From: a virus
Lineage: Duplodnaviria; Caudoviricetes
IMG/VR virus record: IMGVR_UViG_3300024433_000009
Span: 1 to 53,157 of that record
Reading direction: 5' to 3' (one strand)
Length of the DNA stretch: 53,157 bases
A program made the translations under genes and the position numbers. How positions within the stretch are numbered: the stretch's first letter is position 1; every line of letters begins with the position of its first letter. Positions 20,262 to 43,240 of this stretch are shown in pieces. The notes beneath the pieces are model-generated. The model was not told where the DNA came from. It made no database searches and saw only the letters and a list, made by a program, of their open reading frames with translations.

Positions 20262-20373
20262 CAAAAAAGCAAGCTAAGCTGAAGAAGCAGCTATGGGATT
20301 TGTGGTCGCTATCAGATGGCGAGATAGGGGAGCAGCCGCCGAAAGAGGAGATGGAGTAGTGGAGGTAAATTAG

Positions 20374-21006
20374 ATGAAAATGTTAGATATATTCTGTGGA
20401 GCTGGCGGTGCAGCAATGGGACTGCATAGAGCGGGGCATGAAGTCATCGGAGTTGACATTAATTCACAGCCAAATTATCCTTTTGAATTTATACAAGCGG
20501 ATGCACTTACTTTTGATTTAGATGGCTACGATGCATATTGGGCAAGTCCACCATGCCAAGCATATACTTGGGCTTCCTCAAAAGCAAGAAATAGAGGTAA
20601 ATTTTATCTCGATTTAATACCAAAAATAAGAGAACATTTATTAGAAACAAGCAAACCATTTATAATAGAAAATGTCATCAGTGCACCAATTAGAAAGGAT
20701 TTACTTCTTTGTGGAACGATGTTTGGATTAAATATAATTAGACACAGACACTTTGAGATAGAAGGATTATCTATACCACAGCCATTACATCCTAAGCACA
20801 AGCCACCGATTATCATACAAACAAAAAATAATACTCTTGCGAAACGCAGTCAATATTGTTGTGTTGCGGGTTGCGGCGGTGACGGATGTAGTTTCAAATA
20901 TGAGGATTGGAAAAAGGCAATGAATATAAATTGGATGACCAAAAAAGAATTAATACAAGCAGTACCACCCGCCTATGCGCAATATATCGGGGGGTTTCTG
21001 AAATGA
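20374..21006 (+). CDS. DNA (cytosine-5)-methyltransferase
   Basis: Motif I DIFCGAGG, catalytic SPPCQ, ENV, RHR; short target-recognition region. Confidence 0.88.
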   Translation: MKMLDIFCGAGGAAMGLHRAGHEVIGVDINSQPNYPFEFIQADALTFDLDGYDAYWASPPCQAYTWASSKARNRGKFYLDLIPKIREHLLETSKPFIIENVISAPIRKDLLLCGTMFGLNIIRHRHFEIEGLSIPQPLHPKHKPPIIIQTKNNTLAKRSQYCCVAGCGGDGCSFKYEDWKKAMNINWMTKKELIQAVPPAYAQYIGGFLK

Positions 21007-21290
21007 GCGAGAACTGGAGCTAAAACAGAAATAGAGCAAGAGCAGACAACCTTAAATGAGCAGTCGACAATACAAAAAGCAGGATTCTAACAAAAGGACA
21101 ACACAGAAGAGCTGAACGAACTGACAGAAGAAACATTAGAGCAAACGATGGAAGCGCTAAACGCAGCAATGGTTATCGGGGACTACAAGAAATGTAACGA
21201 GTTATTGGACGTGCTTTCTCCGAGAACCCATTAGAAAACCTAAACATTTTAGGATTGCCTAACCAACTGCAATAATTTTTATAATAACCG

Positions 21291-21378
21291 AAAGCTTTAT
21301 ATACCCCTTCTTATATACATATACATATACATATACATATATATTATATAATATATAAGAAAAAAAAGGGGGGGGGGG
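21291..21378 (+). promoter_or_regulatory. TATA promoter followed by (ATATAC)4, a 20-bp AT palindrome and a G11 tract
   Basis: Read directly from the sequence upstream of ATG 21387. Confidence 0.65.
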
Positions 21379-21386
21379 AAAGAAAA

Positions 21387-22067
21387 ATGGAAAAGAAAGA
21401 AGCGGCGGAAGCCGCAGATTTGAAAAGTGTCCTGGAATATATCCAGGAACGCGAGGGGGACCTTGCAAGAGCTACCGAAAAACTCCGCACGAATGTGGAG
21501 AGAATAGCAAATATATTTGGGGAAAAGGAATATTGCCAGATATGCGGGCGACACGTTATGAGCAGTATTCACTTCCAGTATTGCGAAAGAAAAACCAATC
21601 GAGTTTTTGATGGGATACCCGAACAAATCGAAGGAGCAAAAATCGAATTGGTTTCGCCGGATTTTGATAGAGGACGATGGGGCGATCCAGAGCGCAAAGT
21701 ACATTATATCGAAGAACGCGAACACCACAAATTCATGCCAAAAATCTTCGTGAGCATCGAGGTCACCGATGACGAATCATTCTATGAAAGCGAAGACGAC
21801 GAAGGAGAAATCGAAAAATACTTCCTCACTACCCGGCAACATGACTTGGAAGTAGAAGTTTGCTATAGGGGTGAAGTCAGCTACTACGTTAAAATCGCGA
21901 ACCTACCAAGACAGGCACTGAAAGAACTTGTTCGGAGCGAGCGAATATCAAAATTTCTGGAAAAAGTAAGCAAGGGACTCGAAATAACAGGAAAGAACTA
22001 TGAAGAAGTCGCAGAAGTCGCAGAGCGGTTGGCAACCGTTCTGCCTCAACAAGGAGAGAAAAAATAA
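21387..22067 (+). CDS. Hypothetical protein (coiled coil plus CxxC...H)
   Basis: 226-aa ORF, first gene behind a strong promoter. Confidence 0.65.
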   Translation: MEKKEAAEAADLKSVLEYIQEREGDLARATEKLRTNVERIANIFGEKEYCQICGRHVMSSIHFQYCERKTNRVFDGIPEQIEGAKIELVSPDFDRGRWGDPERKVHYIEEREHHKFMPKIFVSIEVTDDESFYESEDDEGEIEKYFLTTRQHDLEVEVCYRGEVSYYVKIANLPRQALKELVRSERISKFLEKVSKGLEITGKNYEEVAEVAERLATVLPQQGEKK

Positions 22068-22068
22068 G

Positions 22069-22290
22069 ATGGTAACCGTATATCTGCCCAATGACATAAC
22101 GCTGGAATTGCTTATGTTAGCGGCAAAGGAAAACGAGGAATTGAAAATACAAGGTAAGAAGGCGAACATAACGGACGCTACGATAATATCGAGAATAGTC
22201 AAGGAGTGGTATCAGAAACGCATAGATGCGGGTAAAGCGCAAGTGGAATTATGGGAACGAGTAGCGCAGAGAAAGGAGGCGAAGCAATAA
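22069..22290 (+). CDS. RHH-like protein
   Basis: MVTVYLPNDI...ITDATIISRIVKEW. Confidence 0.5.
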   Translation: MVTVYLPNDITLELLMLAAKENEELKIQGKKANITDATIISRIVKEWYQKRIDAGKAQVELWERVAQRKEAKQ

Positions 22291-22291
22291 G

Positions 22292-22387
22292 ATGCTATGC
22301 AAAATATGCGGGAACGAATTGGAAAACGAAGACGAAGAAATGGATGGTATATGCGATGATTGCAGAGAGGATTTAGGAGAGATATAA
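22292..22387 (+). CDS. Zinc-finger microprotein (31 aa)
   Basis: MLCKICG...GICDDC; GGAGG RBS upstream. Confidence 0.55.
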   Translation: MLCKICGNELENEDEEMDGICDDCREDLGEI

Positions 22388-22542
22388 ATGGAAAGAAGAG
22401 GAGTAGGCGAGAACTCCCCTGTGATAAGATTAATCAGGGGAGTATATAAACGTTTTCGGAATGGCGGACCGAAAGCACGAGTTGGAGAAGAGAGCCTTAG
22501 CATTGTTGTCTTTGAAAAAGGAATAGTAAGGGAGGTAGCGGC

Positions 22543-23034
22543 ATGAGCGAAGAAGCAAAAAGAGATTGGAAAGCCCAGAGAATAGACGAATATATAAAAC
22601 TCGAAAATATAGTCACTACGGAAACACGGAAAATGGATACTGATCCAGACTTGGATATGTTGAGGCGGGAAAGAGCGAAATTAAACGAAATGATAGAATT
22701 GGGGCAAGGGCTATATATCAAGACAATCGAAGCGGCGCAGCAACAGCAAATAGGCATTAAATCCGAACTTGTTGAGAAGTGGGACATCGAAGAGAAGACT
22801 TTTGAATGCGCTGCGGGGACGGCGACATTGAGGACAACGCGGTCGTTGCACATCAAAAGCAAAGAGAAGCTGGTGGAATTCCTCGCAACGATACACAGAC
22901 TTCCCGATTTCATCAAGAGTTTCGAGACGGTCAAGCTCCGCAAGACAAAAGACGCTGGACTGTTGGGGGACGAGATAGCGACCTGGGACGAGAAAAAGAG
23001 CGTGGCGATAAAAATAGCGGAGGCAGAACAATGA
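22543..23034 (+). CDS. Gam/Gp157-like DNA end-protection protein
   Basis: Coiled coil, then KTFECAAGTATLRTT...FIK...VKL pattern. Confidence 0.5.
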   Translation: MSEEAKRDWKAQRIDEYIKLENIVTTETRKMDTDPDLDMLRRERAKLNEMIELGQGLYIKTIEAAQQQQIGIKSELVEKWDIEEKTFECAAGTATLRTTRSLHIKSKEKLVEFLATIHRLPDFIKSFETVKLRKTKDAGLLGDEIATWDEKKSVAIKIAEAEQ

Positions 23035-23579
23035 GCGAAAGCAATAAGTTAGCCATAGAGTTTTCGAATCTCAGTAAAAGCAGCCTGAGAACGGTCAAAC
23101 GGGAACTGAAGGAACTGATAGAAGATTATGCATGGAAGAAGATGGTAAGCGGCTGCATACAAGTCAGGGAGGACGAATAAGATGGTATCAGTACGTGAGA
23201 TGTTGGACATGAACATGGAAGAGCTCTGCAATCTCGCATTAAACAACCAATGGGATATGGAGCAATTACAGGCATGGAGCACATTCAAGATGGCACAATA
23301 TGTCGAAAAGAGCATACGAAAAGAGCATACGAAAAGAGGGGAAAGAACAATGAGCAAACAAAATGATTTAGAAGTTGCGACTGAGACATTGCTTAATGCG
23401 TTTGGGGGTACAAAAACGGACGATATGGGCTGCATCTTCTACATTTTCGATAAGAGCGAAAATGGAGGAGGCACGGGTTTCAGTACGCGAAACAGCGATA
23501 CAGGTGATGCCTTGGTTGCGATAAAACGAATCATGAAAAGGTTCAAAATCAATCAGAGCGCATTAATGGAGGCACTACA

Positions 23580-24542
23580 ATGATCGAACAGCAAGCAACC
23601 CCAACAGACGAAGATAAAGAAGAACAGGAATTGGAGGAGGCAGAAAAGGAATTTGCCGAAGAAATGGAGGGTGAGATTGAAGATACTGAAGAAATAGCCG
23701 AACAAAATCAGCAAATACTTGCGGCACTCGGATTCAAGCGATACGAAGACCCTGGCGTAATAAAATATGCCATCCGGGTGATGGACATAAAAATTGGCAT
23801 TACGTTCAACGAGGCCCACCCGCTCGGTAAGATATGGGCATATAAAATTCCTGAAGGCGACGAGGAAAAGGAATTTCTCAAGAATGGCGACCTGAATCAG
23901 CATCCACTGGTACAGAAATACAAATCCATCCAAGAAGGTAAAGAACCACTACCAGAAATAATCGTCACCGGTAAGATAATAGAAAAGCGAGGAAAAGCCA
24001 TCTTGATTCAGATTGAAGAAAACGGTGAATCAAAGCAGATATTCTTCGGGCAAGGCGCAGTAAAGAAGGATACGGAAGGCTATTTCATACCAGCGGGATT
24101 CAGCAATGCAACAAAAGAGCACGATGCGAAGATGGCGATACCGCGGGACATTAGATTGTCTGACTATAAAACGCAACTGGAGCAGGCTCCGGTAGCGGAC
24201 ACGACAAAAAAAGAAGAGGAAAAGGAAAGCAAAGAAAAAGCAGAACAAGGAACTGTCGCAGACAAAATACCGCACAAGGAACCAGTACCACTCGCAGAAG
24301 GCGAAAAGCTCACCGTAGATTACTATGTTAACCTAATCGGAGAAATCACCGAGAAGGTCAGAGCGGATGAACGGATTTCTGAGAGAGAGGCGGGCTATGC
24401 GATAAACATGGTATTCAATGCGATCACGAAGGACACGAGGGCGGCACTTATCGCAGAACTCAAAAACGGGATTAAGGAGGAGCTATATGACCGAAGAGGA
24501 ATGGCAAAGGGAAAGAGAACGCATCCGGGGGATGCAGAATAG
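23580..24542 (+). CDS. Hypothetical protein with very acidic N-terminus
   Basis: 320-aa ORF with RBS and ATGA coupling to the previous gene. Confidence 0.65.
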   Translation: MIEQQATPTDEDKEEQELEEAEKEFAEEMEGEIEDTEEIAEQNQQILAALGFKRYEDPGVIKYAIRVMDIKIGITFNEAHPLGKIWAYKIPEGDEEKEFLKNGDLNQHPLVQKYKSIQEGKEPLPEIIVTGKIIEKRGKAILIQIEENGESKQIFFGQGAVKKDTEGYFIPAGFSNATKEHDAKMAIPRDIRLSDYKTQLEQAPVADTTKKEEEKESKEKAEQGTVADKIPHKEPVPLAEGEKLTVDYYVNLIGEITEKVRADERISEREAGYAINMVFNAITKDTRAALIAELKNGIKEELYDRRGMAKGKRTHPGDAE

Positions 24543-24650
24543 GCACGTCAAAGAAGAAAGGAGTGGAAGGGAATGATAAACGCACAAAGAGAGGATATAT
24601 TAAGCAAGAGCCTTTTTATACCTCTTTTTCTTTTTTCCCTTTATTTGGTT

Positions 24651-24723
24651 GGGGGTGTAGCTCAGCCAGAAGAGCGGCAGTCTCCAGAACCGCAGGTCGT
24701 GAGTGCAAGTCTCACCTCCCCCA
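24651..24723 (+). tRNA. trnW: tRNA-Trp (CCA), intronless, with stem mismatches
   Basis: GGGGGTG-TA-GCTC/GAGC D arm, GCAGT-CTCCAGA-ACCGC anticodon arm, GTGAG-TGCAAGT-CTCAC T arm, CTCCCCC-A; TTTTTATA box upstream at 24613. Confidence 0.8.
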
Positions 24724-24782
24724 TAATCTAATACTTATAACCCAAACTACTAACAACTTTTCATTTTTCTTTAAGTAACCAC

Positions 24783-24822
24783 AACTTTTATATACCCTTA
24801 TTATAATAAGTATTATAAGGGG
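24783..24822 (+). promoter_or_regulatory. TATA promoter with downstream palindrome
   Basis: AACTTTTATATACCC followed by the 14-bp palindrome CTTATTATAATAAG. Confidence 0.6.
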
Positions 24823-25157
24823 ATAAAAACAAAATGCAAAAAAAGGGAACCGCGCAAAGGGGCGAGCGCGAAACAAAAAAGCCGGTAGAAAAGTGCTGCG
24901 GGCACATCCCTACGCTATGGGGATGCGAAGGCAGAAGGTGGGTATATGTGTGCCAAGTGTGCGGGGCAAGGCAATATAAGGAGGCGAGAGTATAAGATGG
25001 ACGAAGATAAAATTTTAGACGTGGTTTGGGATAACCACGAGGAGTGGACAGACAAACAAATCGGTACATTCGTAAGGAAGGCACTTACGGAAGACATAAC
25101 ACAAGAGGATTTAGAAAAGGAAATAGAAGCAGATGAAAGATGGAGGAGGCGAATATA

Positions 25158-25322
25158 ATGCCAGTAATGCATATCGCAGAGGATCTTAACGACCGAATGT
25201 TTGCACTGGGCTATACAAAAAGGGTTCAACGCATCGTATTTGTTAAAGAGGCGATACGTGAGCGGCTGGAACGTGAGGAGAGCGAGGCGGGGGCGATGAA
25301 CCCTCGCAAAATAAGGAGGTGA
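25158..25322 (+). CDS. RHH-like protein
   Basis: MPVMHIAEDL...FVKEAIRERLERE. Confidence 0.55.
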   Translation: MPVMHIAEDLNDRMFALGYTKRVQRIVFVKEAIRERLEREESEAGAMNPRKIRR

Positions 25323-26284
25323 GTGAGTAGGATGAGATCAGAAGAAATAGAAAAAGAAATGGAAGCATTTCTCGAAGAGGAGGGAGATGTAGACGATTAT
25401 ATCCCCATCCATGACGGGGAAATGATTGTCGGCGTAGTTCGAAAGAAAGATGTATCAAAGGTCTCTGATGCATCATACGGCGGCGCATGGATAGGAGTTG
25501 AGCGTTTGATTGGGTTCGTAGATTTCAATAAGCAAGGCATAGTGGTGGTCAATAACGGCGACTATAATTATGGCCGTGCTGACTACGTAGTCGATGAAAA
25601 CGAACAGAAGAGGTACGATAATGGAGAATTGATTTGGAACTCTCAGGATTGCCGTCTTGAAGAACCTGAAGAGGATGAAAGAGAGGAAGAAGGGTTGTGA
25701 GCGAGGTGGGGGCGATGAACCCCGCAACGGAATAAGAGGAGGGAAAAAGAAAAAAATGGATGAAACAGAAAAAGTAAACTTTGCTGACCGGACATGGAGA
25801 CAGGAACCAGTTCCAAGCGAAGAGGCTATAAGGGCAGAACAGGAAGCAGACGAGGAAGCGGACAGGCGCGATGCCGATGAGCAAGAAGAGGATTTCTACA
25901 ATGATTTTCACCAAACAGGCGGAGGTGATGAAGGACAATGATAACCTCTGATGATTTTGAAGAATGGCTCTTTGATAAAATAGACCCAAAGACAGACAAA
26001 TTTCCTAACATATTTTATTCCATATTGGCTCGATTGTGGTTCATACCGCATAACTTCATAGATAAATGGTATTACCGCATATTTGTACGTGGGAAATGCG
26101 CAATCAAAGGTTGCGAAGAACATTATAGTTGCGGAGGAAATTTACCTGATGATGTCTGTGAATGGTACTGCAAACGCTGTAACGCAGAAGGAATAAACCA
26201 TATCGTATATACGCACGAATTTTTTTATCCCGATACACCAGTACACAATTTCAAAGAGGTGTTAAGGGGGCGATGAATCCCGCG
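25281..26284 (+). repeat. Three dispersed GGGGGCGATGAAYCC hairpin repeats at gene junctions
   Basis: Copies at about 25281-25308, 25700-25727 and 26266-26284, each followed by a GGAGG RBS. Confidence 0.75.
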
Positions 26285-26506
26285 AAGGATAGGAGGCGAA
26301 TGAAAGAAGATGGCCATAGAAGAATTTGTTGAAGCATTGAAAGCGATAGCAGAGGATAGGGAAGTGATGATTCCCGCACAGATACATTTGAGGGGACAGA
26401 TAAACAGCATAATAGACTCATTGGGTGGACCAACGGCGACATACGAGTATTTTCGAAAAGTGCATGAAGCAAAAGCACCGATATATCCACTGGAGGCGAA
26501 ACTAAA

Positions 26507-26656
26507 ATGACAAAATTTAAAATCATCGCAACGGATTATATGGGCATATGCTTTCATTGCAAATGCAAACTCAAAACTGATAAGGAGAAGAAACAAGGGT
26601 ATTGCGAAGAATGCTGGGAACGATACACTGATGAAATGGAGGCAATTTATCAATGA
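26507..26656 (+). CDS. Zinc-finger microprotein (49 aa), paralog of 13410
   Basis: GICFHC...YCEECWERYT. Confidence 0.65.
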   Translation: MTKFKIIATDYMGICFHCKCKLKTDKEKKQGYCEECWERYTDEMEAIYQ

Positions 26657-27548
26657 AAACAAAAAACATCTTCATAGCTAGGTGCAGAGGCTGTGGCGAG
26701 CCGGTACTTATTTGGCAAGGCTCGCCAAGGGCCATCTGCCATAGATGTGGGCAACAACTCGCTAACATGCCGTATCGTGAACGAGAACAGGAAGGGTTGG
26801 GACAGTGGTTAGGAGGGCTAATATGAACATAAATGAAGAAGAAGCATGGACAATTTTCAGGGCATTGGGAGATGAAGACGGAGAAATAACAGAAGAAGAA
26901 GAAAAGCTTGAAAAGCGAATAAGACAAGAATTCCCAGCTATTAACGAGAAATTGAAAAAAAACGAACATCGGGATCATCTTTGGAAATATGAAGTTGAAA
27001 ATGACAAAAAAGTCAAAGAAGCAAGAGAAAGATCGAATCGACTGAACATGGAATCTCTCTATAGATTATTAGATGATCTCATGAAGGTTGCTTTTCCACC
27101 CGTTTTCTTTTCGCGCAGCTCCCTCGATGGACTATTAGATGATCTCATGAAGACAAAAAAAATGGTGTTGGATGAAATATTAGAAAAGGAGTACGCAAAA
27201 TGAGCGACATAGCAGAACTCCGCAAGCGAGCAATGCAAGACCCGCAAAGTCTGAGCGATGCGGAATGGAAGGAGATTCTTGCGTTTGCAGCTCCGAAGAA
27301 GGATTTTTACGACGAAGGCAATATAGCAAAAGTCAGCAGCTCGGGTCCGCAAAATAAACAGAGGAGGAAAGGGTGGTGGTGAAGGTGGACATATATCCGG
27401 CAACGTGCAGCATACGGATACGGTGCGACTCGCAGGCGGAACTCGACGACATCCACGATAAGCTGAAACGATTGATCGGCGAGGAGCACGTGCGCGAACA
27501 CGGCTATAATCGGTAAGCTTTATATGCTTGCCTTCTTTTTTATTTTTT

Positions 27549-27881
27549 ATGAAATTATATCTAAGGCATAAATTTGACGCTGCGCATTTCTTACCCGAAT
27601 ACAAAGGCAAATGCAGAAACTTACATGGACATACGTGGCTTGTTGAAATAGGGATTAAAAAACATTTAAAACCCGAAGAAGCAATGATTGCTGATTTCAC
27701 AGAGGTTAAACAAATAATAGATGAATTTGACCATAAATCCCTGAACGATTTTATGTATAATCCAACCGCAGAGAACATTGTTAGATATTTCTTAAATAAG
27801 CTTAAAGAGTTTGATGCAACCGTAAAGGTATGGGAATCTGAAGATTCGTGTATAGAAGGTAACACAGATGAAGATTTGTGA
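27549..27881 (+). CDS. queD: 6-carboxy-5,6,7,8-tetrahydropterin synthase
   Basis: FDAAH, CRNLHGH, PTAEN and WES motifs. Confidence 0.93.
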   Translation: MKLYLRHKFDAAHFLPEYKGKCRNLHGHTWLVEIGIKKHLKPEEAMIADFTEVKQIIDEFDHKSLNDFMYNPTAENIVRYFLNKLKEFDATVKVWESEDSCIEGNTDEDL

Positions 27882-28470
27882 GGTATTTGAAGCAATCCAA
27901 GGGGAAGGGGGTTTAACAGGAATGCCTATGCTATTCATTAGATTATCTGGCTGCAATCTTAACTGTGAATACTGCGATTCAAAATACCATGATTTAGATG
28001 GAAAAGAAACAAAGATAGGAGAACTCATAGAACGCATTAATCAATCAAATAAACAATATATATGCTGGACTGGTGGTGAACCAACACTCCAAATTTGTGA
28101 TATAAGCGAAGTTATTAAAGCAACCGTAAACAAATACCATGTACTTGAAACAAATGGCACACAACAAGGATTTGATGCCTCTCTATTCTATCATATTACA
28201 ATATCACCGAAAGACGAAAATACTGCAAAATACTGGCAACTTCGAAAAGACAATTCTGAAGATAACATTACAATTAAAGTAGTCACGGATTTACAAAGGA
28301 TAAATATGGATTTACTCAACTACGCAGACTATTTAATGCCTTTAACTACGTTCAATAACCAAGAGGATGAACAGATAAAAAGACGCGTATGGAATTACTG
28401 CATTAAACATAACTTTATTTACTCGCCACGATTACATATAGATATATGGGGTAACAAAAGATGCAAATAG
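27868..28470 (+). CDS. queE: 7-carboxy-7-deazaguanine synthase (radical SAM)
   Basis: IQGEG, CNLNCEYCD, TGGEP, LETNG, ISPK and SPRLH motifs. Confidence 0.95.
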   Translation: MKICEVFEAIQGEGGLTGMPMLFIRLSGCNLNCEYCDSKYHDLDGKETKIGELIERINQSNKQYICWTGGEPTLQICDISEVIKATVNKYHVLETNGTQQGFDASLFYHITISPKDENTAKYWQLRKDNSEDNITIKVVTDLQRINMDLLNYADYLMPLTTFNNQEDEQIKRRVWNYCIKHNFIYSPRLHIDIWGNKRCK

Positions 28471-28970
28471 AAATACCGGATGAATTGTTTAGCGCAGAGG
28501 AATTAAGGAATACGCCTGACCGTATTAAACGCTTCTTACAAGAATGGCAAAATAAAGACGACTTTAAATTCACTATGTTTGATAATCCGGGATACGACCA
28601 AATGATTCTTTTAAAATCAATTGAGTTTGGTTCTCTTTGCTCACATCATTTATTACCTTTTACGGGCTTCGCACATGTAGGTTATATCCCGGATAAGAAG
28701 ATATGTGGTATATCAAAACTCGCTCGGGTAGTTGATATGTTTGCATCACGTCCACAAGTGCAAGAACGGCTTACGCAACAGATAGCGGATTTTATTGTTC
28801 AGCAGTTAAACCCTATTGGTGTAATGGTTGTTTTGGAAGCGCAACACGAGTGTATGCGTATTCGCGGTGTTAAAAAGGCTAATTCTGTTATGGTAACGAG
28901 TGCGTTAAAGGGGTTATTTAAAAAAGACGAGAAGGCACGTTTAGAGTTTATGGGGTTAATAAGAAAATGA
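28461..28970 (+). CDS. folE: GTP cyclohydrolase I
   Basis: SLCSHHLLPF, GISKLAR, QVQERLT and HECMRIRG motifs. Confidence 0.96.
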   Translation: MQIEIPDELFSAEELRNTPDRIKRFLQEWQNKDDFKFTMFDNPGYDQMILLKSIEFGSLCSHHLLPFTGFAHVGYIPDKKICGISKLARVVDMFASRPQVQERLTQQIADFIVQQLNPIGVMVVLEAQHECMRIRGVKKANSVMVTSALKGLFKKDEKARLEFMGLIRK

Positions 28971-29296
28971 CAACTATATATGCAATTATACGAACGCAGT
29001 TTGAAGGAATACATAAATACCCAGATGCAAGTGGTAATGAAGATTTTCTTAAATATCCGCACAGGCATATTTTTCATGTAGAAATAAAAATAGAGCAGTT
29101 CCACGATAATCGTGATATAGAATACATTGCATTTAAACGGTGGCTCAACACGCTTTTAAGTAGTGATTTAGATTACAAATCTTGCGAAATGATTGCTAAT
29201 GAGGTAATAGATAAAATTAAAGCTAAATATCCTAACAGAAAGCTAATTGTTAAGGTGCTTGAGGATAACGAGAATGGAGCTGAGGTAAGCGCATGA
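28967..29296 (+). CDS. dpdL: QueD-like T-fold protein, DpdL-like (putative CDG decarboxylase)
   Basis: LKYPHRHIF fits the LxxxHRHxF signature I recall for DpdL; also SCEMIA and VLEDNENG. Confidence 0.7.
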   Translation: MTTIYAIIRTQFEGIHKYPDASGNEDFLKYPHRHIFHVEIKIEQFHDNRDIEYIAFKRWLNTLLSSDLDYKSCEMIANEVIDKIKAKYPNRKLIVKVLEDNENGAEVSA

Positions 29297-30216
29297 AAAT
29301 TTTTTATGCAGGTGCTGATGACAGCTATTGGAGCAATCGGATACTTGCAGGACTATCTTTGGATAATTCAAATAATCCGAATATCCTTACTACCTACTAT
29401 AAAATTCACGAGCATATAAATGCGGATTTTGAATACATTTATAAGCAGAGTTTATCCGACAATATTGATTGGATTGTTGATAGCGGGCTCTTTACAATGA
29501 TGTTTGGTGCGGGTAAGGGCAAACAATATAACGAAGATGATTTGTTAGAATATGCTAAAGGATATATTCAATTTATGAATAATATTAATTACAAACACAC
29601 CCTCATTGAGATGGATGTGCATAAAGTATTAGGTATATCGGCGCTCAACAAAATGCGTTCAATGTTTGAAAAGGATTGGGATATTGAACGCACTATATTT
29701 GTTTGGCATCTCGAAGAGGGGACAGAAGGGTTAATCGCACTCGCTAATAAATATCCTTATATCGCTATTTCTATCCCAGAATTACGTATTCTCGCAACTC
29801 GAAACAAGCAATCCGTTAAAACTATGCTTTATTCACTCTTTCATATTATTAGAAAAAATACAAAGGAATACCCTAAAATTCACTTACTCGGCTGTACGCA
29901 ATGGGATTTAATGATGAATAGTAATTATTACTCTGTGGATTCTACTGCGTGGATTTCTGGCGTTAAATATAATCAAGTTAAATGTTACCGGCACGGGGGA
30001 TTAATAGGTGCATCTTTGTATAGTAACGAATACAAAACATATCGACAGAAATATTATCCCTCTCTGGTTACTCTTTTAAGTGAAGGCATCCAAAAATATG
30101 GTAAATGTAAAATAAATAATTATTCAGTAAATGCCGCCTTACAAGCATTTTCTTTTCGCCAGATGGAAAACTATATAAACAACAGATTCTATTCAAATAA
30201 CGAACAAATAAAATGA
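29293..30216 (+). CDS. dpdA: TGT-fold DNA 7-deazaguanine transglycosylase, DpdA-like
   Basis: IVDSGLF, EMD, FVWH, IHLLGCT and SVDSTAW motifs; lies inside the que cluster. Confidence 0.8.
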   Translation: MKIFYAGADDSYWSNRILAGLSLDNSNNPNILTTYYKIHEHINADFEYIYKQSLSDNIDWIVDSGLFTMMFGAGKGKQYNEDDLLEYAKGYIQFMNNINYKHTLIEMDVHKVLGISALNKMRSMFEKDWDIERTIFVWHLEEGTEGLIALANKYPYIAISIPELRILATRNKQSVKTMLYSLFHIIRKNTKEYPKIHLLGCTQWDLMMNSNYYSVDSTAWISGVKYNQVKCYRHGGLIGASLYSNEYKTYRQKYYPSLVTLLSEGIQKYGKCKINNYSVNAALQAFSFRQMENYINNRFYSNNEQIK

Positions 30217-30806
30217 CTAAAATAGAAGACCTAAAAAAGAAAATAATCACATTCAAAGGGATCAACGTAGAGCTAAAAGGCGATTTAAAGCTATTTGCTA
30301 ACTACAAACTCATTCCTTTTGAACTACTCGTCAAAGCGGACTGGAATTACAAAATAGATAACGATAAACGTAAAGAGGATTTACTTCAGAACCTTAAACG
30401 TATTGGACAAGTAGAAAATATATTAGTACGTGAACTCGATACTGGTTATTACGAAGTCATTAACGGCAATCATCGTTATGATGTGTTTGCGGATATGGGT
30501 ACTCAATTTGTACTCTCCTATGATTTCGGGCATATATCAGATGCACAAGCTAAGCGTGTAGCAGTGGAAACGAACGAAACTAAATTTGAGGTAGATAATA
30601 TAAAACTTGCCGAGACAATTAAAGACATCACTCTTGAGTTCTCATTTGACGAGATAGAAATAACTATGCCTTTTACAATGCCTGAACTGGAGAATTTCGG
30701 TGAGCTATTAGAATTTAACTGGGATGAAATCAACAACAATCCTACGGATTCTGAGGAGGAAAAAGGGAAGAAAAATAAATGTCCTAAATGTGGATTTGAA
30801 TGGTGA
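30213..30806 (+). CDS. ParB/sulfiredoxin-fold protein with C-terminal zinc ribbon
   Basis: YEVINGNHRY motif; ends CPKCGFEW. Confidence 0.8.
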   Translation: MTKIEDLKKKIITFKGINVELKGDLKLFANYKLIPFELLVKADWNYKIDNDKRKEDLLQNLKRIGQVENILVRELDTGYYEVINGNHRYDVFADMGTQFVLSYDFGHISDAQAKRVAVETNETKFEVDNIKLAETIKDITLEFSFDEIEITMPFTMPELENFGELLEFNWDEINNNPTDSEEEKGKKNKCPKCGFEW

Positions 30807-31042
30807 TGTGCATAACAAATAAATAAAAAGTATTAAATATTAATAGCATTTAGAAAAAAAGAAAGGCCGAGAAAAGAGAGTAACGTAATATTTAATAAAT
30901 CCTGTGCTAAAAGAAAAGAATAAAATGTTTGCAAAACCCAAAGTAAAGCTGCGTATGAGAAGAAAAAGCTGGAGACAAATAAACATTAATTACGGTGCTT
31001 TTACTTATATATGCGATAGAACATTACAAAGAAGAAAGAAAA

Positions 31043-31684
31043 ATGGACTTCCCTGACTTAAACAGCATCGAAGATAAGCATTACATAGAACGAATCCACG
31101 TAGTAGCGATAACCTATCCGCACTTCTCAAAAAACTATCGCCGGTTCGTAACATGCCTTGCAGGACTCACAAAAGAAAACGAATGGCGGCGCATATATCC
31201 CGTGCCTGCGAAATGGATTGCTGAAACAGGAATAAGAAAGGGTGACGAAGTGGAATACCGCATTCGAGATGAACATCCTGAGCATCGTTACGAAAGCAGG
31301 AAGATACATACGGAAACGCTGAGGCTCACAGGTTCACATCGTAATATCAACTCATTCGATATTGAAACACTGAAACATGCGACCGAAACGGGTAAATCCA
31401 TCGCCGTCATAAAGCCCGCTATAATTGACATAAGCAAAAGATACAGGAAGATACCAGTAGATGCGCGTTCAAAGCGGGACTTTTATTCGCTTTCGTTGCC
31501 TCTCCACTACCCTTCTTTTTTGTTTCGCGATACTGACCTGAGCGTGCACAGAGCGTCTTGTGAGGATATGAATATTGTTCAGGGGCATGATTGGGAATTG
31601 CATGAGCTTAAAGACTCTATTTTTATCATGGGCACGCATTATCTTTTTAACACATGGCTTATCATATCTATTATTAACAAATAA
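31043..31684 (+). CDS. Hypothetical protein, possibly dual-OB-fold nucleic-acid-binding family
   Basis: TYP...S..Y...TCLAG...WRRIYPVP...HRYESRKI motif set. Confidence 0.55.
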   Translation: MDFPDLNSIEDKHYIERIHVVAITYPHFSKNYRRFVTCLAGLTKENEWRRIYPVPAKWIAETGIRKGDEVEYRIRDEHPEHRYESRKIHTETLRLTGSHRNINSFDIETLKHATETGKSIAVIKPAIIDISKRYRKIPVDARSKRDFYSLSLPLHYPSFLFRDTDLSVHRASCEDMNIVQGHDWELHELKDSIFIMGTHYLFNTWLIISIINK

Positions 31685-31705
31685 TTATCAATTCTTTCAT
31701 ATACA

Positions 31706-32116
31706 ATGGACAAAACGAAAAAGAAAAGGGGACAACCGGAAAAAGCATCTGTAAGAAAGATATTAGCAGCAATATCGGGAACTGGAGGATTAAAAACCGC
31801 CATCGCAATTAAACTCGGTGTGCATTATCGCACGGTCCTCAACTATGAAAAAAAATATGAAACCGTCAGGCAAGCAATAGGAGAAGAGACAGAAAAGATA
31901 CTTGATAAGTGTGAAAGCAATCTATTTCTACGGATTCAAGAAGGAGATGAAGATACAAGTAAGTGGGTTCTATCTCGTAAAGGCAAACAAAGGGGATACT
32001 CCGAAAAGATAGAGACTGAACAAAAAGGTTCTCTCAAGGTAGAACACACAGTCAAAATAGAGGACACAATAAAAAAATATAAAGGTGTGATAGATGAACT
32101 TGAGCAGCCGGATTAA
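31706..32116 (+). CDS. terS: Terminase small subunit
   Basis: HTH (IAIKLGVHYRTV), GKQRGYSEK motif; overlaps terL. Confidence 0.8.
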   Translation: MDKTKKKRGQPEKASVRKILAAISGTGGLKTAIAIKLGVHYRTVLNYEKKYETVRQAIGEETEKILDKCESNLFLRIQEGDEDTSKWVLSRKGKQRGYSEKIETEQKGSLKVEHTVKIEDTIKKYKGVIDELEQPD

Positions 32117-33428
32117 GCAGCGCATAGCGGAGTTTCAGGCGACTGTAATAGACAATTCCTACATACCACACGAACCAACCGAGAAGCAGGCGAAGTTCCT
32201 GTTACAATCAGATTGTCTCGAAGGTTTCTATGGCGGCGCAGCAGGAGGGGGAAAGAGCGATGCATTATTGATGGGCGCATTACAATATGTGACAATACCT
32301 GGATATTCGGCATTGCTACTTAGACGTACATATACCGACCTTGTATTGCCCGAGGCATTGATGGACCGCGCAACGGAATGGCTATCCCGCACAAATGCCG
32401 TCTGGCATGACAAAACAAAAGGGTGGGTATTTCCAAGCGGTGCGACATTGAGTTTTGGCTATCTCGAATCAGAACGGGACAAATTCCGATATCAAAGTGC
32501 AGCGTTTCAGTATATAGGATTTGATGAGGTCACACAGTTCACAGAAACACAATATAGTTATCTGTTTTCGCGGCTGCGCAGGTTAAAAGATACAAATATC
32601 CCAATACGGATGCGTTCCGCGAGTAATCCTGGGGACATAGGACATGAATGGGTTAAGGCACGTTATATAAAACCCTCCTTTGCAGATTTAAAGGAACAAA
32701 ACCGTTTTTTCATCTTTGCATTGTTAGAAGACAATCCCCATCTAGATCGAGAAGAATATGAAAAATCTCTTAACAAACTTGACCCGGTTACCCACGAGCA
32801 ACTCCGACACGGCAATTGGGACATAGCAATTGCGGGCAATATGTTCAAACGCGAATGGTTCGAGATTATTGACGCGGCACCGCAGTGCAATCGCCAGGTT
32901 CGATTCTGGGACATGGCGGCATCCGAGCGAAAAAAAGGAAAAGATCCTGATTGGACTGTCGGATGTTTACTCGCAGAAAAAGACGGAATATTTTACGTAA
33001 AAGACATTGTCAGATTTCAGAAGACACCGGCAGATACCGAAAATATCATTAAGCAAACTGCACAGATTGATGGCATAGAACCAAGGATATATATGGAGCA
33101 GGAACCTGGGGCAAGCGGAAAAATCGCGATAGATCATTATGCCCGTGAAATACTGAAAGGTTATTCGTTTGTCGGCATTCCCAGCACAGGTTCAAAAGTG
33201 ACGAGAGCGCAGCCGCTATCCGCAGCGGCACAGAATGGCAACGTAAAAATAGTCAATGGGATGTGGGTAAGCGACATGCTGTCGGAGGTCGTTTTGTTCC
33301 CCACTAAAGGGATACATGACGACATCGTAGATGCGATGAGCGGTGCGTTCAACCAACTAAATTTCAGTGGCAAGACGCCAGACGAACTCGGTTCTTTATT
33401 GGTTATGGGCGGAAAAACGAGAATATAA
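32094..33428 (+). CDS. terL: Terminase large subunit
   Basis: Walker A GGAAGGGKS, Walker B YIGFDE, ASNPG; nuclease residues WDMA and HDDIVDA. Confidence 0.96.
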   Translation: MNLSSRIKQRIAEFQATVIDNSYIPHEPTEKQAKFLLQSDCLEGFYGGAAGGGKSDALLMGALQYVTIPGYSALLLRRTYTDLVLPEALMDRATEWLSRTNAVWHDKTKGWVFPSGATLSFGYLESERDKFRYQSAAFQYIGFDEVTQFTETQYSYLFSRLRRLKDTNIPIRMRSASNPGDIGHEWVKARYIKPSFADLKEQNRFFIFALLEDNPHLDREEYEKSLNKLDPVTHEQLRHGNWDIAIAGNMFKREWFEIIDAAPQCNRQVRFWDMAASERKKGKDPDWTVGCLLAEKDGIFYVKDIVRFQKTPADTENIIKQTAQIDGIEPRIYMEQEPGASGKIAIDHYAREILKGYSFVGIPSTGSKVTRAQPLSAAAQNGNVKIVNGMWVSDMLSEVVLFPTKGIHDDIVDAMSGAFNQLNFSGKTPDELGSLLVMGGKTRI

Positions 33429-33458
33429 TTTAAGAAGTCTTACCGTTTCTCTGAAAGC

Positions 33459-34688
33459 ATGGATGAACAAACGGTAAAGGCGTCCCTTTCCGGACTCACA
33501 AGACGCAGCCTTAAAAACGTTCCTAAAGAATTCAAAATCGGCGATTTCGTCATCAGCAACGATAACATATTCACAAAATACCGGCAGTTAGGCAGCTTGG
33601 ATCTCGTTTCAGATGCATTGGAGAAAGCGAGTCTGGAGATGGCGAGCGGGTTTGAGATATACAGCGATAATGAGAGTGACGATATCAGCCCGTTGAACGA
33701 TTGGGGCGACACGGTTGATTTAGAAGGGCACATCCTCGCGGTGCTCCATGAGCTATTGGAGAAGGGCACCGTGGTCGTCTATACAGGGCAGTGGCGAAAC
33801 GACATAAAGGAATTAAGACTGTTGCCGATGGACTATGTGACGTTACTTCCAAAAGACGTCTCTGTTGGGTCTACGCCGTCCACGTTAATGATGGGCGACA
33901 TAGAGCGCGTAGTCGTGAACGAGAATTCGGTAACTGGTGATGTCACAAGGCAGATTCTTGACATAGACAAAGAAGTGATCATATATCGCTATAAGTATCG
34001 CGGGAACGTTTTTGAAGATATTATGAATCGTAACACATACGGGTTGTACGGTCGTAGCATACTGCACAATAAGGAATGGCGACTGGAATATTACTATGAC
34101 ATGCTCGAATCGTACAGAAAATACGTGCAGCGATACGGCTTTGGACGTTTGTTTTACAATTCTGGGGTGCTTGCGGAACTACTCAAGGCGGAAAGCTATG
34201 ACAAGTTCGTGGAGGTGCGGAACGCGATGAGTGCGAAGATGGAAGAACTTGCCGAGAATGAGGATATTTTAGGTGTCGGGATGGACGTCACTCAACTTGA
34301 CACGAATACCGGTTTGGACATACTGGGCATGAAAGAGTCTCTGGAAAAAGACATATACGCGTTGCTATTCGGTAGTGGAACTACGTCCGGGAAGGAGGCA
34401 GGCACAACCTACGCATCCGCATACGTAGTAGAGCAGAATCGGATACGCATACTGAACAGCTATCGCAGGCAGATGCGCATTCAATTGGAGAAACTGATCA
34501 GGAGACAAGCGGAGAATCTGGATATGCACAACGTTGAAAAAATACATGTTCGATTTGAGCAGCTCGATAAGGCACGGTACAGTGCGAAAGAGATTGCGGA
34601 ACTCTACACGGCGATGGTAATTGAAAAGGACGAGGCGCGAGAACTATTGGGTTTTGCGCCTCTGAATGAATTTGAAGAAGAGGAATGA
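33459..34688 (+). CDS. Portal protein
   Basis: 409 aa directly after terL; YGRSIL and C-terminal EARELLGF motifs. Confidence 0.8.
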   Translation: MDEQTVKASLSGLTRRSLKNVPKEFKIGDFVISNDNIFTKYRQLGSLDLVSDALEKASLEMASGFEIYSDNESDDISPLNDWGDTVDLEGHILAVLHELLEKGTVVVYTGQWRNDIKELRLLPMDYVTLLPKDVSVGSTPSTLMMGDIERVVVNENSVTGDVTRQILDIDKEVIIYRYKYRGNVFEDIMNRNTYGLYGRSILHNKEWRLEYYYDMLESYRKYVQRYGFGRLFYNSGVLAELLKAESYDKFVEVRNAMSAKMEELAENEDILGVGMDVTQLDTNTGLDILGMKESLEKDIYALLFGSGTTSGKEAGTTYASAYVVEQNRIRILNSYRRQMRIQLEKLIRRQAENLDMHNVEKIHVRFEQLDKARYSAKEIAELYTAMVIEKDEARELLGFAPLNEFEEEE

Positions 34689-35041
34689 CCAAAGAATATC
34701 TATTCGGAATGCTGAAGAGATACGCAAGCGAGATAAATGAGGCATTTGAAGAATATCACGCATCTATAGATCGTAGTGGTGCAATATTGCAGCTCAGAAT
34801 TTCTGAATCACAAAAACGAAAATGAAAACGAAAGTAGCATTTCGGAAGGGAACTGTTGAAATGAAAACGAAATATAGTTGGCATGTTAAGTGGCGGCAGT
34901 ATAATCCAATCAGTTGGCTATTGTGCTGGCTGTTCGAGCATTATTCGTGGGCGCCCGGAGTGTGGGCGTATGATCTGCATGATTTCTTTTGCCCTGTAGT
35001 GCAAGAAGCGAAAGAGGAATGGGATTCGAAAAAGGAAAACA

Positions 35042-35737
35042 ATGGATGTTGATATAACTCGCACAGCGGTACTTCGGCACGAATTCGAACGAGAGCTGAG
35101 AAAGCTTCCTGTAAACGCAGCGAAACGCATAAAGGCATTACTTGCAACGGGGTTAATAGGAGACGAAACTATTGCCGAGGTGCAGCACATAATCACACAA
35201 GAACTCGGAGCTAAAGAGGCACATAAAGTACTGAACAGATATTCGATGCTCTTCTGGAAGCGAGGCAGTGAATTCGCGTTAAGGCAGTTAAAACGTGCAG
35301 GATTAACGCTTGAGATACCATCTTATCTCGCGGTGATGGACGAGGAAACGCTTACCGCATTGAGGGCGATGCAGTTAGATCTTGTTACGGGTATGAGCGA
35401 GACAATGAAGAAGGACGTGGCTTTCCAACTACGAGAAGGAATGCTAAGAGGTGAGCATCCGACAAAGATAGCGGACAGGATAGCGGAAGTTGCACAGATA
35501 ACAAAGAATAAGGCGACAAGAATAGCACGGACCGAAGCGACTCGCGTATTCAATGAGGCAGCGAGCGACCGTTATAAGAAAGCGGGGATAGAGAAATTCA
35601 CCTGGACGGCAATAGGTGATGAACGAACTTGTGATATTTGCGACGGGTTAGATGGGCAAATCTTTTCAATAGGTTCACAAAAGCCTCCAATTCATGTAAA
35701 TTGCCGTTGTACGATAGTACCACTTATAGAGAAATAA
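35042..35737 (+). CDS. Head morphogenesis protein (SPP1 gp7 / Mu gpF family)
   Basis: RIARTE, DERTCDIC and PPIHVNCRC motifs. Confidence 0.93.
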   Translation: MDVDITRTAVLRHEFERELRKLPVNAAKRIKALLATGLIGDETIAEVQHIITQELGAKEAHKVLNRYSMLFWKRGSEFALRQLKRAGLTLEIPSYLAVMDEETLTALRAMQLDLVTGMSETMKKDVAFQLREGMLRGEHPTKIADRIAEVAQITKNKATRIARTEATRVFNEAASDRYKKAGIEKFTWTAIGDERTCDICDGLDGQIFSIGSQKPPIHVNCRCTIVPLIEK

Positions 35738-36221
35738 TAAGTTTATATAGCTTAGCTTAAATAGAATGAACATGATAACCATGCGTGTCGAAGTGGACAT
35801 AGCGGAGTACGTGGATACATTGCACGCACGCGAGGAGATAGCGAAACGCATTCATTCGCAGTTGGTAACTGCAAAATGGATAAAAAGCGTAAGGATTGTC
35901 TATGAATAAAGAAAAAGAACTATTCCCGGAAATGCAAATAGCGGCGAATGAAGAAGTGTATCAATTTAAGCAACATTTGAAGGAACGAAGGATAGCATAT
36001 GAAGGATTCGTGTGGATGGAGAAGCAATGGGCAGAGAATTATGAGGGGGACATAAGCGATGATTGAAATATGGATATGCAACAATTGTGGCTTTGAAGCG
36101 ATTGATATGGCATTCTATAAGCGTAATTCAATAATAGGAATATGCCCGAAATGCAATTCAAACGACGATATAAAAATCCGCGAGGACCAGAGTTGGAAGA
36201 AAAATTGGGGGAGGGAAAGCA

Positions 36222-36644
36222 ATGATTAAATCAGCATTAATGAATAATGAAATGGAAGTAGAGAAACATATCATGGATTTATTGAAACTTGAAGCATCAC
36301 AAATTTTTAAAGGGCACGCGTTAAAAAATTTGTCTATTGAGAAGTATTACAATGAGATATTAGATGCGTTAACATACCGATTGTGGACAATGGTTCCTGT
36401 TGAACACATGAAAAGCGCAACACATGAATTTGTTGTTAGTTATCCGATTTCATGGTGGCAAATGTTCAAAGAACAATATTTCCCGAGATGCTTAAAAAGC
36501 CACTTTCCTATTAAATATAAGACAAAGAAAAAGACGGTAAAATTTGATGCTTATGCACTATATCCTAAAATGCCAAGGATATTTGAATGTGGGGATTATA
36601 ACCAGATAATAATGACAAGGGAGGATGAAGAAGAATGGAAATAG
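36222..36644 (+). CDS. Hypothetical protein
   Basis: 140-aa ORF with RBS; PISWWQMFK motif. Confidence 0.55.
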   Translation: MIKSALMNNEMEVEKHIMDLLKLEASQIFKGHALKNLSIEKYYNEILDALTYRLWTMVPVEHMKSATHEFVVSYPISWWQMFKEQYFPRCLKSHFPIKYKTKKKTVKFDAYALYPKMPRIFECGDYNQIIMTREDEEEWK

Positions 36645-37070
36645 AAGAGGCGAGACGCATAAAGAAGGAAACGGAAACAAAGATTTTAAAGTTGCTTAGT
36701 GAGTTTGAGAGCATAACAAAACTTGAAGTCAATAGTGTCTCGTTAGCGCATATTCAGCCGGTTGTTATGCCGCGTTTTGTTAGCGGAGTTGAATTGGAGT
36801 GTTTGGTGAAATGACAAAAATAGATAGAATGCCTCGCGATCTCGGTATTATATCGAAAGACAACATAGCAAATGCACAAAAAAAACATAATAACTTGGGC
36901 GATAAAAGTCAAGGCGACACTTCCTATTTTTCATCATTCCAAATCACGGCGATTCCGATGTATAAAATGCGGACAGATCAACGAATGGAAACGTGGAGAA
37001 ATGATACGGAAATGCGAATGTGGAAAAATGCATGTGAGGCTGTTAGGATTACCAAAACCAAAATAAAGTT

Positions 37071-37430: not shown

Positions 37431-37433
37431 TTA

Positions 37434-38015: not shown

Positions 38016-38051
38016 TATATGTTTAAAAAGTCTATTACGCTATAAAAAGAC

Positions 38052-39374: not shown

Positions 39375-39375
39375 T

Positions 39376-39852: not shown

Positions 39853-39865
39853 GAGGACAAAAGAA

Positions 39866-41426: not shown

Positions 41427-41435
41427 AAAAGAAAA

Positions 41436-43134: not shown

Positions 43135-43240
43135 CCGTCAAATCGAAAGGACGAAAACGAGCGCATGAAAAAAAAAATATAGTCATGGAGGGAAAAAACA
43201 AAAAAGAACTACATGATAAGGTTTGAACAAGAATAAGTCG

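Follow-up and report, generated by a model that had tools for sequence, protein, structure and literature searches.

The window analysed here, the whole 53,157-nucleotide stretch of the IMG/VR virus record IMGVR_UViG_3300024433_000009 (Duplodnaviria; Caudoviricetes), carries a block of six genes related to 7-deazaguanine synthesis and insertion, and the reading that we hold with moderate confidence is that this imported cassette gives 2'-deoxy-7-deazaguanosine (dDG) in the DNA of an archaeal virus. An original prediction, drawn from the letters of the window, had read the block as five genes with this outcome and was partly supported: a DpdL-like gene, the absence of QueC, an archaeal host and a foreign origin of the block were recovered, whereas the suggestion of flux diverted from the host did not hold and a sixth gene had been missed. 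In the proposed scheme, FolE, QueD and QueE would convert GTP to 7-carboxy-7-deazaguanine (CDG), which DpdL, a protein with leucine for the catalytic cysteine and HRH for HGH, would decarboxylate to 7-deazaguanine, a step that is itself a proposal. DpdA would then swap guanine in double-stranded viral DNA for 7-deazaguanine after replication, possibly with the help of a ParB-like protein, much as the ParB-fold ATPase DpdB assists bacterial DpdA. The product, dDG in virion DNA, would block restriction enzymes reading the N7 side of guanine.

All six genes lie on the + strand within 27549-30806, and their successive stop and start codons overlap by 14, 10, 4, 4 and 4 nt; the block is a translationally coupled cassette and the ParB-like gene is part of the same unit. 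Open reading frames (ORFs) and family searches confirmed queD, queE, folE, a second T-fold gene and a gene of the tRNA-guanine transglycosylase (TGT) fold, all overlapping, where the original prediction had placed them, while the sixth coupled gene (ParB-like, 30213-30806) had escaped it. QueD matches PF01242 (PTPS; E-value 3.6e-26), TIGR03367 (90.1 bits against a cut-off of 89.25) and phrog_2389 (2.6e-16), and its CxxxHGH motif is present as CRNLHGH. QueE matches the radical SAM family PF04055 above the Pfam cut-off (1.3e-08) and phrog_2076, 'QueE-like', over residues 2-198 (1.7e-30), with CNLNCEYC as its CxxxCxxC motif; its best NCBIfam matches are five QueE models, every one under its cut-off. 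FolE is matched by PF01227 (1.6e-58) and by TIGR00063 (185.6 bits against a cut-off of 181.6). For these protein families, the pathway by which FolE, QueD and QueE lead from GTP to CDG is established.

A six-frame search of the whole record with PF06508 gave no QueC match (the control was positive in 13 of 14 genomes), and a Pfam scan of 69 ORFs found no QueC, QueF or ArcS, the sole QueF-family match being FolE's own weak hit to PF14489 (0.0026, below cut-off), so that the reported lack of queC and queF holds. Although the record is classed as 'linear' with a CheckV completeness estimate of 54%, positions 18-143 recur exactly as its last 126 nt, and the 17 nt ahead of them are repeated too, with a single indel in a run of T, which makes a terminal repeat of ~143 nt in all (1-143 and 53014-53157 of the window); tail genes run off the end of the record and resume at its start. 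The record is probably a circularly assembled, essentially complete genome of ~53 kb. With overlapping ends and a genome that is probably whole, a missing piece does not account for the lack of QueC.

Judged by its sequence, the second T-fold protein is a member of the DpdL family. DpdL has been described as a paralogue of QueD and proposed as a CDG decarboxylase, with LxxxHRHxF replacing CxxxHGH (PMC10516641); the motif and the proposed role given in the original prediction were accurate. The window protein carries LKYPHRHIF at residues 28-36, which fits this signature, while the window QueD keeps CRNLHGH; it matches phrog_17812 at 3.9e-22 and the PTPS model at only 0.0077. In tblastn it matched 24 phage records, all with bacterial hosts, and six of these phages (ACP17, RHph_I1_18, PA5oct, BUDD, BCSR5 and Ahp1_CNU-2021) have a DpdL entry in Data S1 of PMC10516641. 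Full-length identity is 40% to ACP17 YP_009609725.1, 46% to RHph_I1_18 QIG70625.1 and 47% to the PA5oct ORF; the ACP17 and RHph_I1_18 matches fall in the exact proteins named DpdL in Data S1 (PMC10516641), and the PA5oct figure refers to the ORF under the match. Residues L28, H32, R33 and F36 are invariant among 36 DpdL relatives, and the aligned DpdLs have in common blocks around HRH, DR(D/E)IE, SCEM and EDxENGA; in the same alignment the window QueD and two phage QueDs retain motifs of the C...HGH type. The AlphaFold2 (AF2) model of DpdL (predicted local distance difference test, pLDDT, 95.1) is a T-fold whose best folds in the PDB are PTPS and QueD, with template-modelling (TM) scores of 0.77-0.82, among them PTPS 2dj6 (E 2.5e-5) and E. 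coli QueD 4ntk (TM 0.82). dDG has been measured in the Cellulophaga phages phiST, phi19:2 and phi13:1, in which no CDG was detected (PMC10516641).

Among 1.84 billion cluster representatives, a profile of the 36 DpdLs matched 3204 at E <= 1e-3, with 2864 still matching at E <= 1e-10, and the DpdL family is therefore large. Many of these matches (P0366, P0379, P0384, P0396, P0401 and others) are 260-370 residues long with the DpdL domain at one end, which suggests that DpdL may be fused to another domain in them.

An alignment-based scan of IMG/VR retrieved 211 relatives of the window DpdA, while a scan with this single protein found nothing there; the tallies that follow use the best 80 of the 211 loci, which collapse to 31 clusters at 70% DpdA identity. 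A DpdL-like ORF was found by phmmer within 6 kb of dpdA in 74 of the 80 loci, and a hidden Markov model (HMM) of the 36 DpdLs adds three, giving 77/80; of the three loci left over, two have dpdA at a contig edge and one (L081) has no DpdL in the locus. Of the 74 ORFs that phmmer found, 72 carry the exact LxxxHRHxF signature, the exceptions being one cut by the contig end and one reading FLKHPHRN, and CxxxHGH is present in all 19 QueD-like ORFs of the surveyed loci and in none of the DpdL-like ones. When whole records were searched, DpdL was present in 49 of 50 (50 of the 80), and QueC in none of the 80, nor in any of the 20 that are at least 90% complete. Homologues of FolE, QueE and QueD occur in 39, 36 and 19 of the 80 loci. 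Counted by cluster, DpdL is found in 28/31 (before HMM rescue), the ParB-like gene in 19/31 and FolE/QueE in 26/31. All 27 DpdL-encoding genomes of Data S1 are likewise listed without QueC (PMC10516641). The pairing with DpdL in 77/80 loci, together with QueC in 0/80, is the pattern expected if DpdL, and not QueC, consumes CDG and DpdA takes the product of DpdL.

DpdA itself matches phrog_887, 'queuine tRNA-ribosyltransferase' (9.2e-23), and its AF2 model (pLDDT 94.3; predicted TM score, pTM, 0.92) is a TIM barrel of the TGT type, on which Z. mobilis TGT aligns over 269 residues (Z 17.9, root-mean-square deviation 3.8); the bacterial DNA preQ0 insertase bDpdA (7ui4) is among its Foldseek matches (E 4e-5). 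In a collection of 5.8 billion proteins, 258 relatives reach E <= 1e-3, all of them lacking Pfam domains, and 86-100% of DpdA relatives are viral. As far as their sequences indicate, this DpdA clade is virus-only and coupled to DpdL. An alignment of 57 members shows D63-S-G-x-F67, E106, D108, H139, H197-L-L-G and D216 as invariant or nearly so, with D63 (in DSGLF), D108 and D216 invariant throughout. Asp95, Asp130 and Asp256 are the invariant catalytic or binding aspartates of bDpdA (PMC10164549), and the same order along the sequence suggests that D63, D108 and D216 may be their equivalents. One clade member, QDP49443.1, is 39% identical to the window DpdA over its full length (E 1.1e-56) and stands under DpdA3 in Data S1, with FolE, QueD, QueE and DpdL from the same genome (PMC10516641). 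The context, a virus-only clade and a ParB-like neighbour, makes the window protein a candidate for acting on DNA.

This neighbour matches phrog_723 (3.4e-18) and, below cut-off, PF02195 (6e-4); it carries NGNHR at residues 84-88 and a C-terminal CPKC, and W44, N45, R73, E81, G85 and R88 are invariant in 23 ParB-like sequences. A homologue directly follows dpdA in 30 of the 80 loci, the nearest ones being 48-54% identical. Insertion of preQ0 by DpdA in the Dpd system of bacteria requires ATP hydrolysis by DpdB, a ParB-fold ATPase with the motif DGQQR (PMC10164549), and a ParB-superfamily ORF beside a phage DpdA-like gene has been suggested as a dpdB homologue (PMC6392294). The window protein, at 197 residues, is small compared with DpdB, for which a dimer mass of 80-95 kDa is given (PMC10164549), and it matched no PADLOC model named DpdB (or DpdA); by this small size and lack of a match it is not a member of the DpdB family, which is also marked by a helical domain at the C terminus. 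We infer a DpdB-like role only, in which it would act as an NTP-driven DNA loader or clamp for DpdA.

The virus very probably infects methane-metabolising archaea in the part of the tree from ANME-1/Methanophagales to Methanosarcinales, and the archaeal host of the original prediction thus gains good support from capsid relatives, a provirus, relatives at the DNA level and an archaeal-type tRNA-Trp. Named relatives of the capsid protein are led by one at 85% identity that bears the label Ca. Methanospirareceae archaeon, which another at 58% shares; this family belongs to the order Ca. Methanophagales (ANME-1). Further relatives are labelled as WOR-3 bacterium (64%, from a contig of 3 kb), as Nitrospiraceae (55%) and as Methanosarcina (42%). 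Among 185,579 species genomes there are six capsid relatives, five of them in archaeal metagenome-assembled genomes (MAGs): one with the title uncultured Halobacteria archaeon (66%), two Methanolobus (58%), a Methanosarcinales (50%) and a Nitrosotalea (37%). In the Methanosarcinales MAG, the capsid gene is found 73.1-74.0 kb into a contig of 123.8 kb, and the two ends of this contig encode FwdB (523 bits), HdrA2 (1353 bits), TrpD, archaeal-type TrpE, RNase HII and HsdR; this copy is a provirus integrated in an archaeal chromosome. The order of the 66% MAG, which is the likely host order, comprises 68 species genomes, 47 of them with McrA, and six of the 68 contain segments, 0.3-1.5 kb long, with 66-76% identity to positions 20001-40000 of the window. 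A 26-kb contig of the 66% MAG (L085) has 11 proteins in common with the window, including the capsid protein (66%), the target of a diversity-generating retroelement (DGR; 85%) and its reverse transcriptase (81%). Searches with capsid and portal proteins against 50,697 phage records (tblastn) gave no match.

The viral tRNA-Trp (CCA) at 24651-24723, called by ARAGORN and Rfam, has G1-C72, A73 and G37, as in the tRNA-Trp of two host-order genomes, and blastn against 5,426 E. coli genomes returned no match for it; bacterial tRNA-Trp has A1-U72, G73 and A37. The minimum-free-energy fold gave no cloverleaf, and the call therefore rests on ARAGORN and Rfam. The T loop of the tRNA, UGCAAGU, is unusual and two mismatches occur in the stems, and the word TTTTTATA occurs ~31-38 nt upstream. 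The large terminase subunit (TerL) was rejected as a host marker, its best cultured match being Methanobacterium phage psiM2 (49%) and its relatives at 58-66% being labelled proteins of bacterial MAGs. Matches of 24-80 nt (80-100%) to many host-order genomes pile up at 21283-21353, 25731-25778 and 30889-30935; such short matches (for example 36 nt at 97% in the host-order contig G108:C120) were not counted as spacers, the positions being matched in many genomes and probably of low complexity, although some of them could be spacers.

The cassette was acquired horizontally from a wider, mostly low-GC viral gene pool. Its six genes have GC contents of 0.336-0.382 (35%) and third-position values (GC3) of 0.27-0.34, compared with a mean GC of 0.431 (sd 0.038) and a GC3 of 0.442 for the 63 other genes, only one of which falls below 0.36 (Mann-Whitney p 8.5e-5), and the lowest-GC 2668-nt stretch of the whole record begins at 28401; the AT-rich block noticed in the original prediction is real by both measures. 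Type I FolE was found in none of the 68 genomes of the likely host order (control positive in 11 of 14), and the DpdA clade neither in these nor in the five archaeal genomes with capsid relatives. The nearest relatives of the cassette are on contigs with 27-33% GC, where TerL has only 24-35% identity to that of the window, so it is the cassette, and not the virus, that is common to them. A capsid of the window lineage occurs in 52 IMG/VR records, of which 49 were searched and only one has any DpdA relative; a DNA-level search of the cassette against the 50,697 phage records gave no match. The anomaly in GC and GC3, the absence of FolE from the host order and the occurrence of relatives in unrelated low-GC viruses together indicate import, as had been suspected. 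In addition, as the virus brings its own FolE, QueD and QueE, which start from GTP, and type I FolE is absent from 68 of 68 host-order genomes, the idea that flux is drawn off the archaeosine pathway of the host does not fit.

Several observations weigh against dDG in an archaeal virus as the outcome of this cassette. With respect to chemistry, dDG, as against dCDG or dPreQ0, is a base predicted from genes; decarboxylation by DpdL is still a proposal for every member of the family, and dpdL and dpdA of phiST and of ACP17 yielded no dDG in E. coli (PMC10516641). DpdA has no match among Pfam, NCBIfam and PADLOC models (0 families each) and is hence named by fold, PHROG and context only, and the clade profile finds no PDB sequence at E <= 10. 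The signs on its subfamily diverge: a member is filed under DpdA3, yet comparisons point nearer to DpdA1-like proteins. When the clade profile was compared with a DpdA3, a DpdA2 and a neighbouring ORF of PA5oct, the matches were weak or absent (E 0.057 for the RHph_I1_18 DpdA3 and 0.012 for the DpdA2). In tblastn, QDP49443.1 or the window DpdA reached DpdA1-like proteins (Sonali, 'DpdA' of Pseudomonas phage Iggy, 9g-like phages) and did not reach phiST, RHph_I1_18 or PA5oct, and the order of Foldseek matches in BFVD was Sonali DpdA1-like (4e-9), nt-1 (DpdA2; 7.8e-5), phiST (DpdA3; 1.2e-4) and HCTV-1 (DpdA4; 2e-2). The 80-locus tally is redundant, with 32 loci of gut type, which encode DpdL and DpdA only, falling in a single cluster. 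Within the capsid lineage, a complete virus of 55.5 kb (G182, L134) has a distant DpdA relative at 26734-27435 (E 6.1e-30) and no DpdL at E <= 1e-3. As for the host, the evidence rests on MAG bins with no CRISPR spacer match confirmed, two capsid relatives bear the bacterial WOR-3 and Nitrospiraceae labels, and TerL is nearer to proteins labelled from bacterial MAGs than to psiM2. Lastly, QueC of the host might convert viral CDG to preQ0.

DpdA might insert CDG itself and leave dCDG in the DNA, with the DpdL-like protein serving as a non-catalytic or other T-fold partner or decarboxylating after insertion. The finding of dCDG in the archaeal virus STSV-2 and the E. coli result above speak for such a route (PMC10516641), which we nonetheless consider unlikely, as the DNA of phiST, phi19:2 and phi13:1 had dDG with no CDG detected, STSV-2 is listed in Data S1 without DpdL and without this DpdA clade (PMC10516641), and the near-obligate pairing of DpdL with DpdA (77/80) suggests that DpdL makes the substrate. 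Little weight is also given to dPreQ0 or a derivative, for which viral FolE, QueD and QueE would boost CDG, host QueC would turn it into preQ0 for insertion by DpdA, and DpdL would have an unrelated role. Strong full-length QueC is indeed present in 49 of the 68 host-order genomes (best E <= 6e-40), and viruses of ANME-1 have been reported with QueCDEF genes (PMC9894754); however, viral records with this DpdA clade have DpdL in 77/80 and QueC in 0/80, in gut-phage contigs the clade is also accompanied by DpdL alone, and the 27 DpdL genomes of Data S1 show the same lack of QueC (PMC10516641).

It is very improbable that the viral DNA is left unmodified and that the genes form an auxiliary set altering host tRNA (archaeosine-type) or pterin and deazapurine pools. 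The fold of DpdA is that of tRNA-guanine transglycosylases, and metagenome papers usually label genes of this kind as metabolic helpers; yet DpdA is a bare 307-residue catalytic barrel, its relatives are 86-100% viral with the clade in 0/68 host-order genomes, a ParB-like, DNA-binding-type partner is present in 30/80 loci, and DpdA is argued to mark DNA modification in every virus tested (PMC10516641). The virus could also be a bacteriophage whose archaeal signals are binning artefacts, that is, one more uncultured DpdL phage, in line with TerL identities of 58-66% to proteins labelled from Bacteroidota, Proteobacteria and Pigmentiphaga MAGs, with the WOR-3 (64%) and Nitrospiraceae (55%) capsid labels and with the fact that all 24 cultured-phage DpdL matches are phages of bacteria. 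This seems improbable in view of the capsid-lineage provirus flanked by methanogenesis genes in a 123.8-kb contig, the archaeal-type tRNA-Trp, the archaeal origin of the best capsid match (85%) and of five of six genome matches, and DNA-level relatives in six genomes of a McrA-bearing order; the WOR-3 contig, moreover, is only 3 kb.

The features of the cassette are listed in the table. The sharp drop in GC starts at the TATA-like site, and a TATAAT-like word also occurs at ~27495-27500. Terminase genes come after the cassette, with TerL at 32094-33428.

Features of the 7-deazaguanine cassette, in window coordinates
Feature	Coordinates	Strand	Basis
Possible archaeal TATA box TTTATATG	27511..27518	+	~31 nt upstream of queD ATG; motif resemblance only
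queD, 6-carboxytetrahydropterin (CPH4) synthase, 110 aa	27549..27881	+	Pfam, NCBIfam, PHROG
queE, radical-SAM 7-carboxy-7-deazaguanine (CDG) synthase, 200 aa	27868..28470	+	Pfam, PHROG
folE, GTP cyclohydrolase I (type I), 169 aa	28461..28970	+	Pfam, NCBIfam
dpdL, QueD-like T-fold protein, proposed CDG decarboxylase, 109 aa	28967..29296	+	motif, homology, fold
dpdA, TGT-fold DNA transglycosylase candidate, 307 aa	29293..30216	+	PHROG, AF2 fold
ParB-like protein, likely NTPase/DNA-loading helper of DpdA, 197 aa	30213..30806	+	phrog_723

Elsewhere in the window, the DGR, of canonical type, occupies 41782-44827, with its variable repeat (VR) at 43016-43130, the 3' end of a 450-residue gene, its template repeat (TR) at 43241-43355 and the reverse transcriptase at 43472-44527 (PF00078, 3.9e-26). 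All 21 differences between TR and VR are at TR adenines, and the target protein is 85% identical to the one in the archaeal MAG contig L085. A DGR was described first in the putative ANME virus ANMV-1 (PMC4372165). A direct repeat of 223 nt (92%; 41205-41427 and 45943-46165), formed by the 3' parts of the genes 41028-41426 and 45883-46164, flanks the DGR, and its substitutions are not adenine-specific. A VapB-type antitoxin-like ORF (52494-52766; PF02697, 4.3e-07) and an ORF of an RNA-ligase family (17297-18151; PF09414, 2.4e-12) are also present.

Modification of DNA with 7-deazaguanines is a major anti-restriction strategy of phages. If our reading is true, dDG chemistry extends across the domain boundary into an ANME-1-like archaeal virus, whole modification cassettes move between bacterial and archaeal viruses, and restriction pressure may be suggested to shape the viruses of uncultured methane-consuming archaea of the seafloor. 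The adjacency of DpdL in 77/80 loci with QueC in 0/80 is the strongest genomic support so far for the proposed role of DpdL, and DpdL of 109, DpdA of 307 and the ParB-like protein of 197 residues offer a compact enzyme set for biochemistry. DNA of the dDG type can, furthermore, bias restriction-based and nanopore analyses of environmental viromes. An MT-A70 adenine methyltransferase (4615-5508, - strand; 2.1e-28) and a short C5-cytosine methylase-like ORF (20374-21006, + strand; 2.4e-06) were also found in the window, and with these candidates beside the cassette the virus may stack several anti-restriction marks.

All parts of the cassette belong to known families, and the same gene set is present in an uncultured virus of Data S1; what the present case adds is the host domain, the evidence for transfer of the cassette and the clade-wide statistics on DpdL and QueC. 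In Data S1, DpdL is listed with bacterial or uncultured viruses only, and archaeal viruses with DpdA4, QueC and QueF or with DpdA and ArcS; the 7-deazaguanines reported for archaeal viruses are of the preQ1 type (haloviruses, DpdA4) and, in traces, dCDG (STSV-2) (PMC10516641). No report of DpdL or dDG in an archaeal virus was found in the literature searched, the supplements of the ANME-1 and cold-seep papers lying outside that search. We suggest tentatively, at somewhat less than even chances, that this is the first DpdL-type dDG system in viruses that infect methane-metabolising archaea, brought in from the bacteriophage pool as a mobile cassette of six genes, and that its DpdA clade is dedicated to the DpdL product and works with a small ParB-like NTPase; DNA transglycosylases of viruses would then, like those of bacteria, generally require a ParB-fold helper.

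Among the systems to which it can be compared, the ANME-1 viruses of Laso-Perez et al. 2023 (PMC9894754) are from the same presumed host group and bear deazaguanine genes on head-tailed viruses, but the genes reported are QueCDEF, including QueC and QueF. The ANME-1 and cold-seep virus papers mention QueCDEF, FolE, QueC and QueD among auxiliary genes, and a search of the main text of the former for DNA modification, queuosine or archaeosine turned up no discussion of them (PMC9894754). The archaeal tailed viruses HVTV-1, HCTV-1 and HCTV-5 do put a 7-deazaguanine (dPreQ1) in their DNA, but are listed with DpdA4 together with FolE, QueD and QueE, along with QueC and QueF, and no DpdL (PMC10516641), and DpdA4 (DUF6610) is the most distant from the window DpdA (HCTV-1, Foldseek E 2e-2). 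The closest DpdA relative in a cultured virus is that of Faecalibacterium phage Roos (PP479939.1, orf77-orf78), with 42.5% identity across 54% of the protein; a DpdL-like gene lies directly upstream of it and both are annotated as hypothetical; Roos is, however, a bacterial gut phage, and no homologues of FolE, QueD or QueE are found near the pair in related gut-virus contigs. In the Dpd system of Salmonella Montevideo a TGT-fold DNA transglycosylase adjoins the ParB-superfamily protein DpdB, as in the window, although that system inserts preQ0 as part of a restriction system and has DGQQR where the window protein, half the size of DpdB, has NGNHR (PMC10164549). Closer in gene content is the 'Prokaryotic dsDNA virus sp.' GCA_009652915.1 (QDP49443.1-QDP49447.1), with the same DpdA clade (39%), FolE, QueD, QueE and DpdL and no QueC listed; it differs in being an uncultured marine virus known from genes alone, with its DpdA filed as DpdA3 (PMC10516641). 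The phiST system has a bacterial host, a DpdA3 that is a relative at the fold level only (BFVD Foldseek E 1.2e-4) and no reported ParB-like partner, and phiST is absent from the tblastn matches of the window DpdL and DpdA. It nevertheless combines the same five functions (FolE, QueD, QueE, DpdL and DpdA3) with the same LxxxHRHxF signature and no QueC, and systems of the phiST type are the only kind in which dDG has been measured according to that source (PMC10516641).

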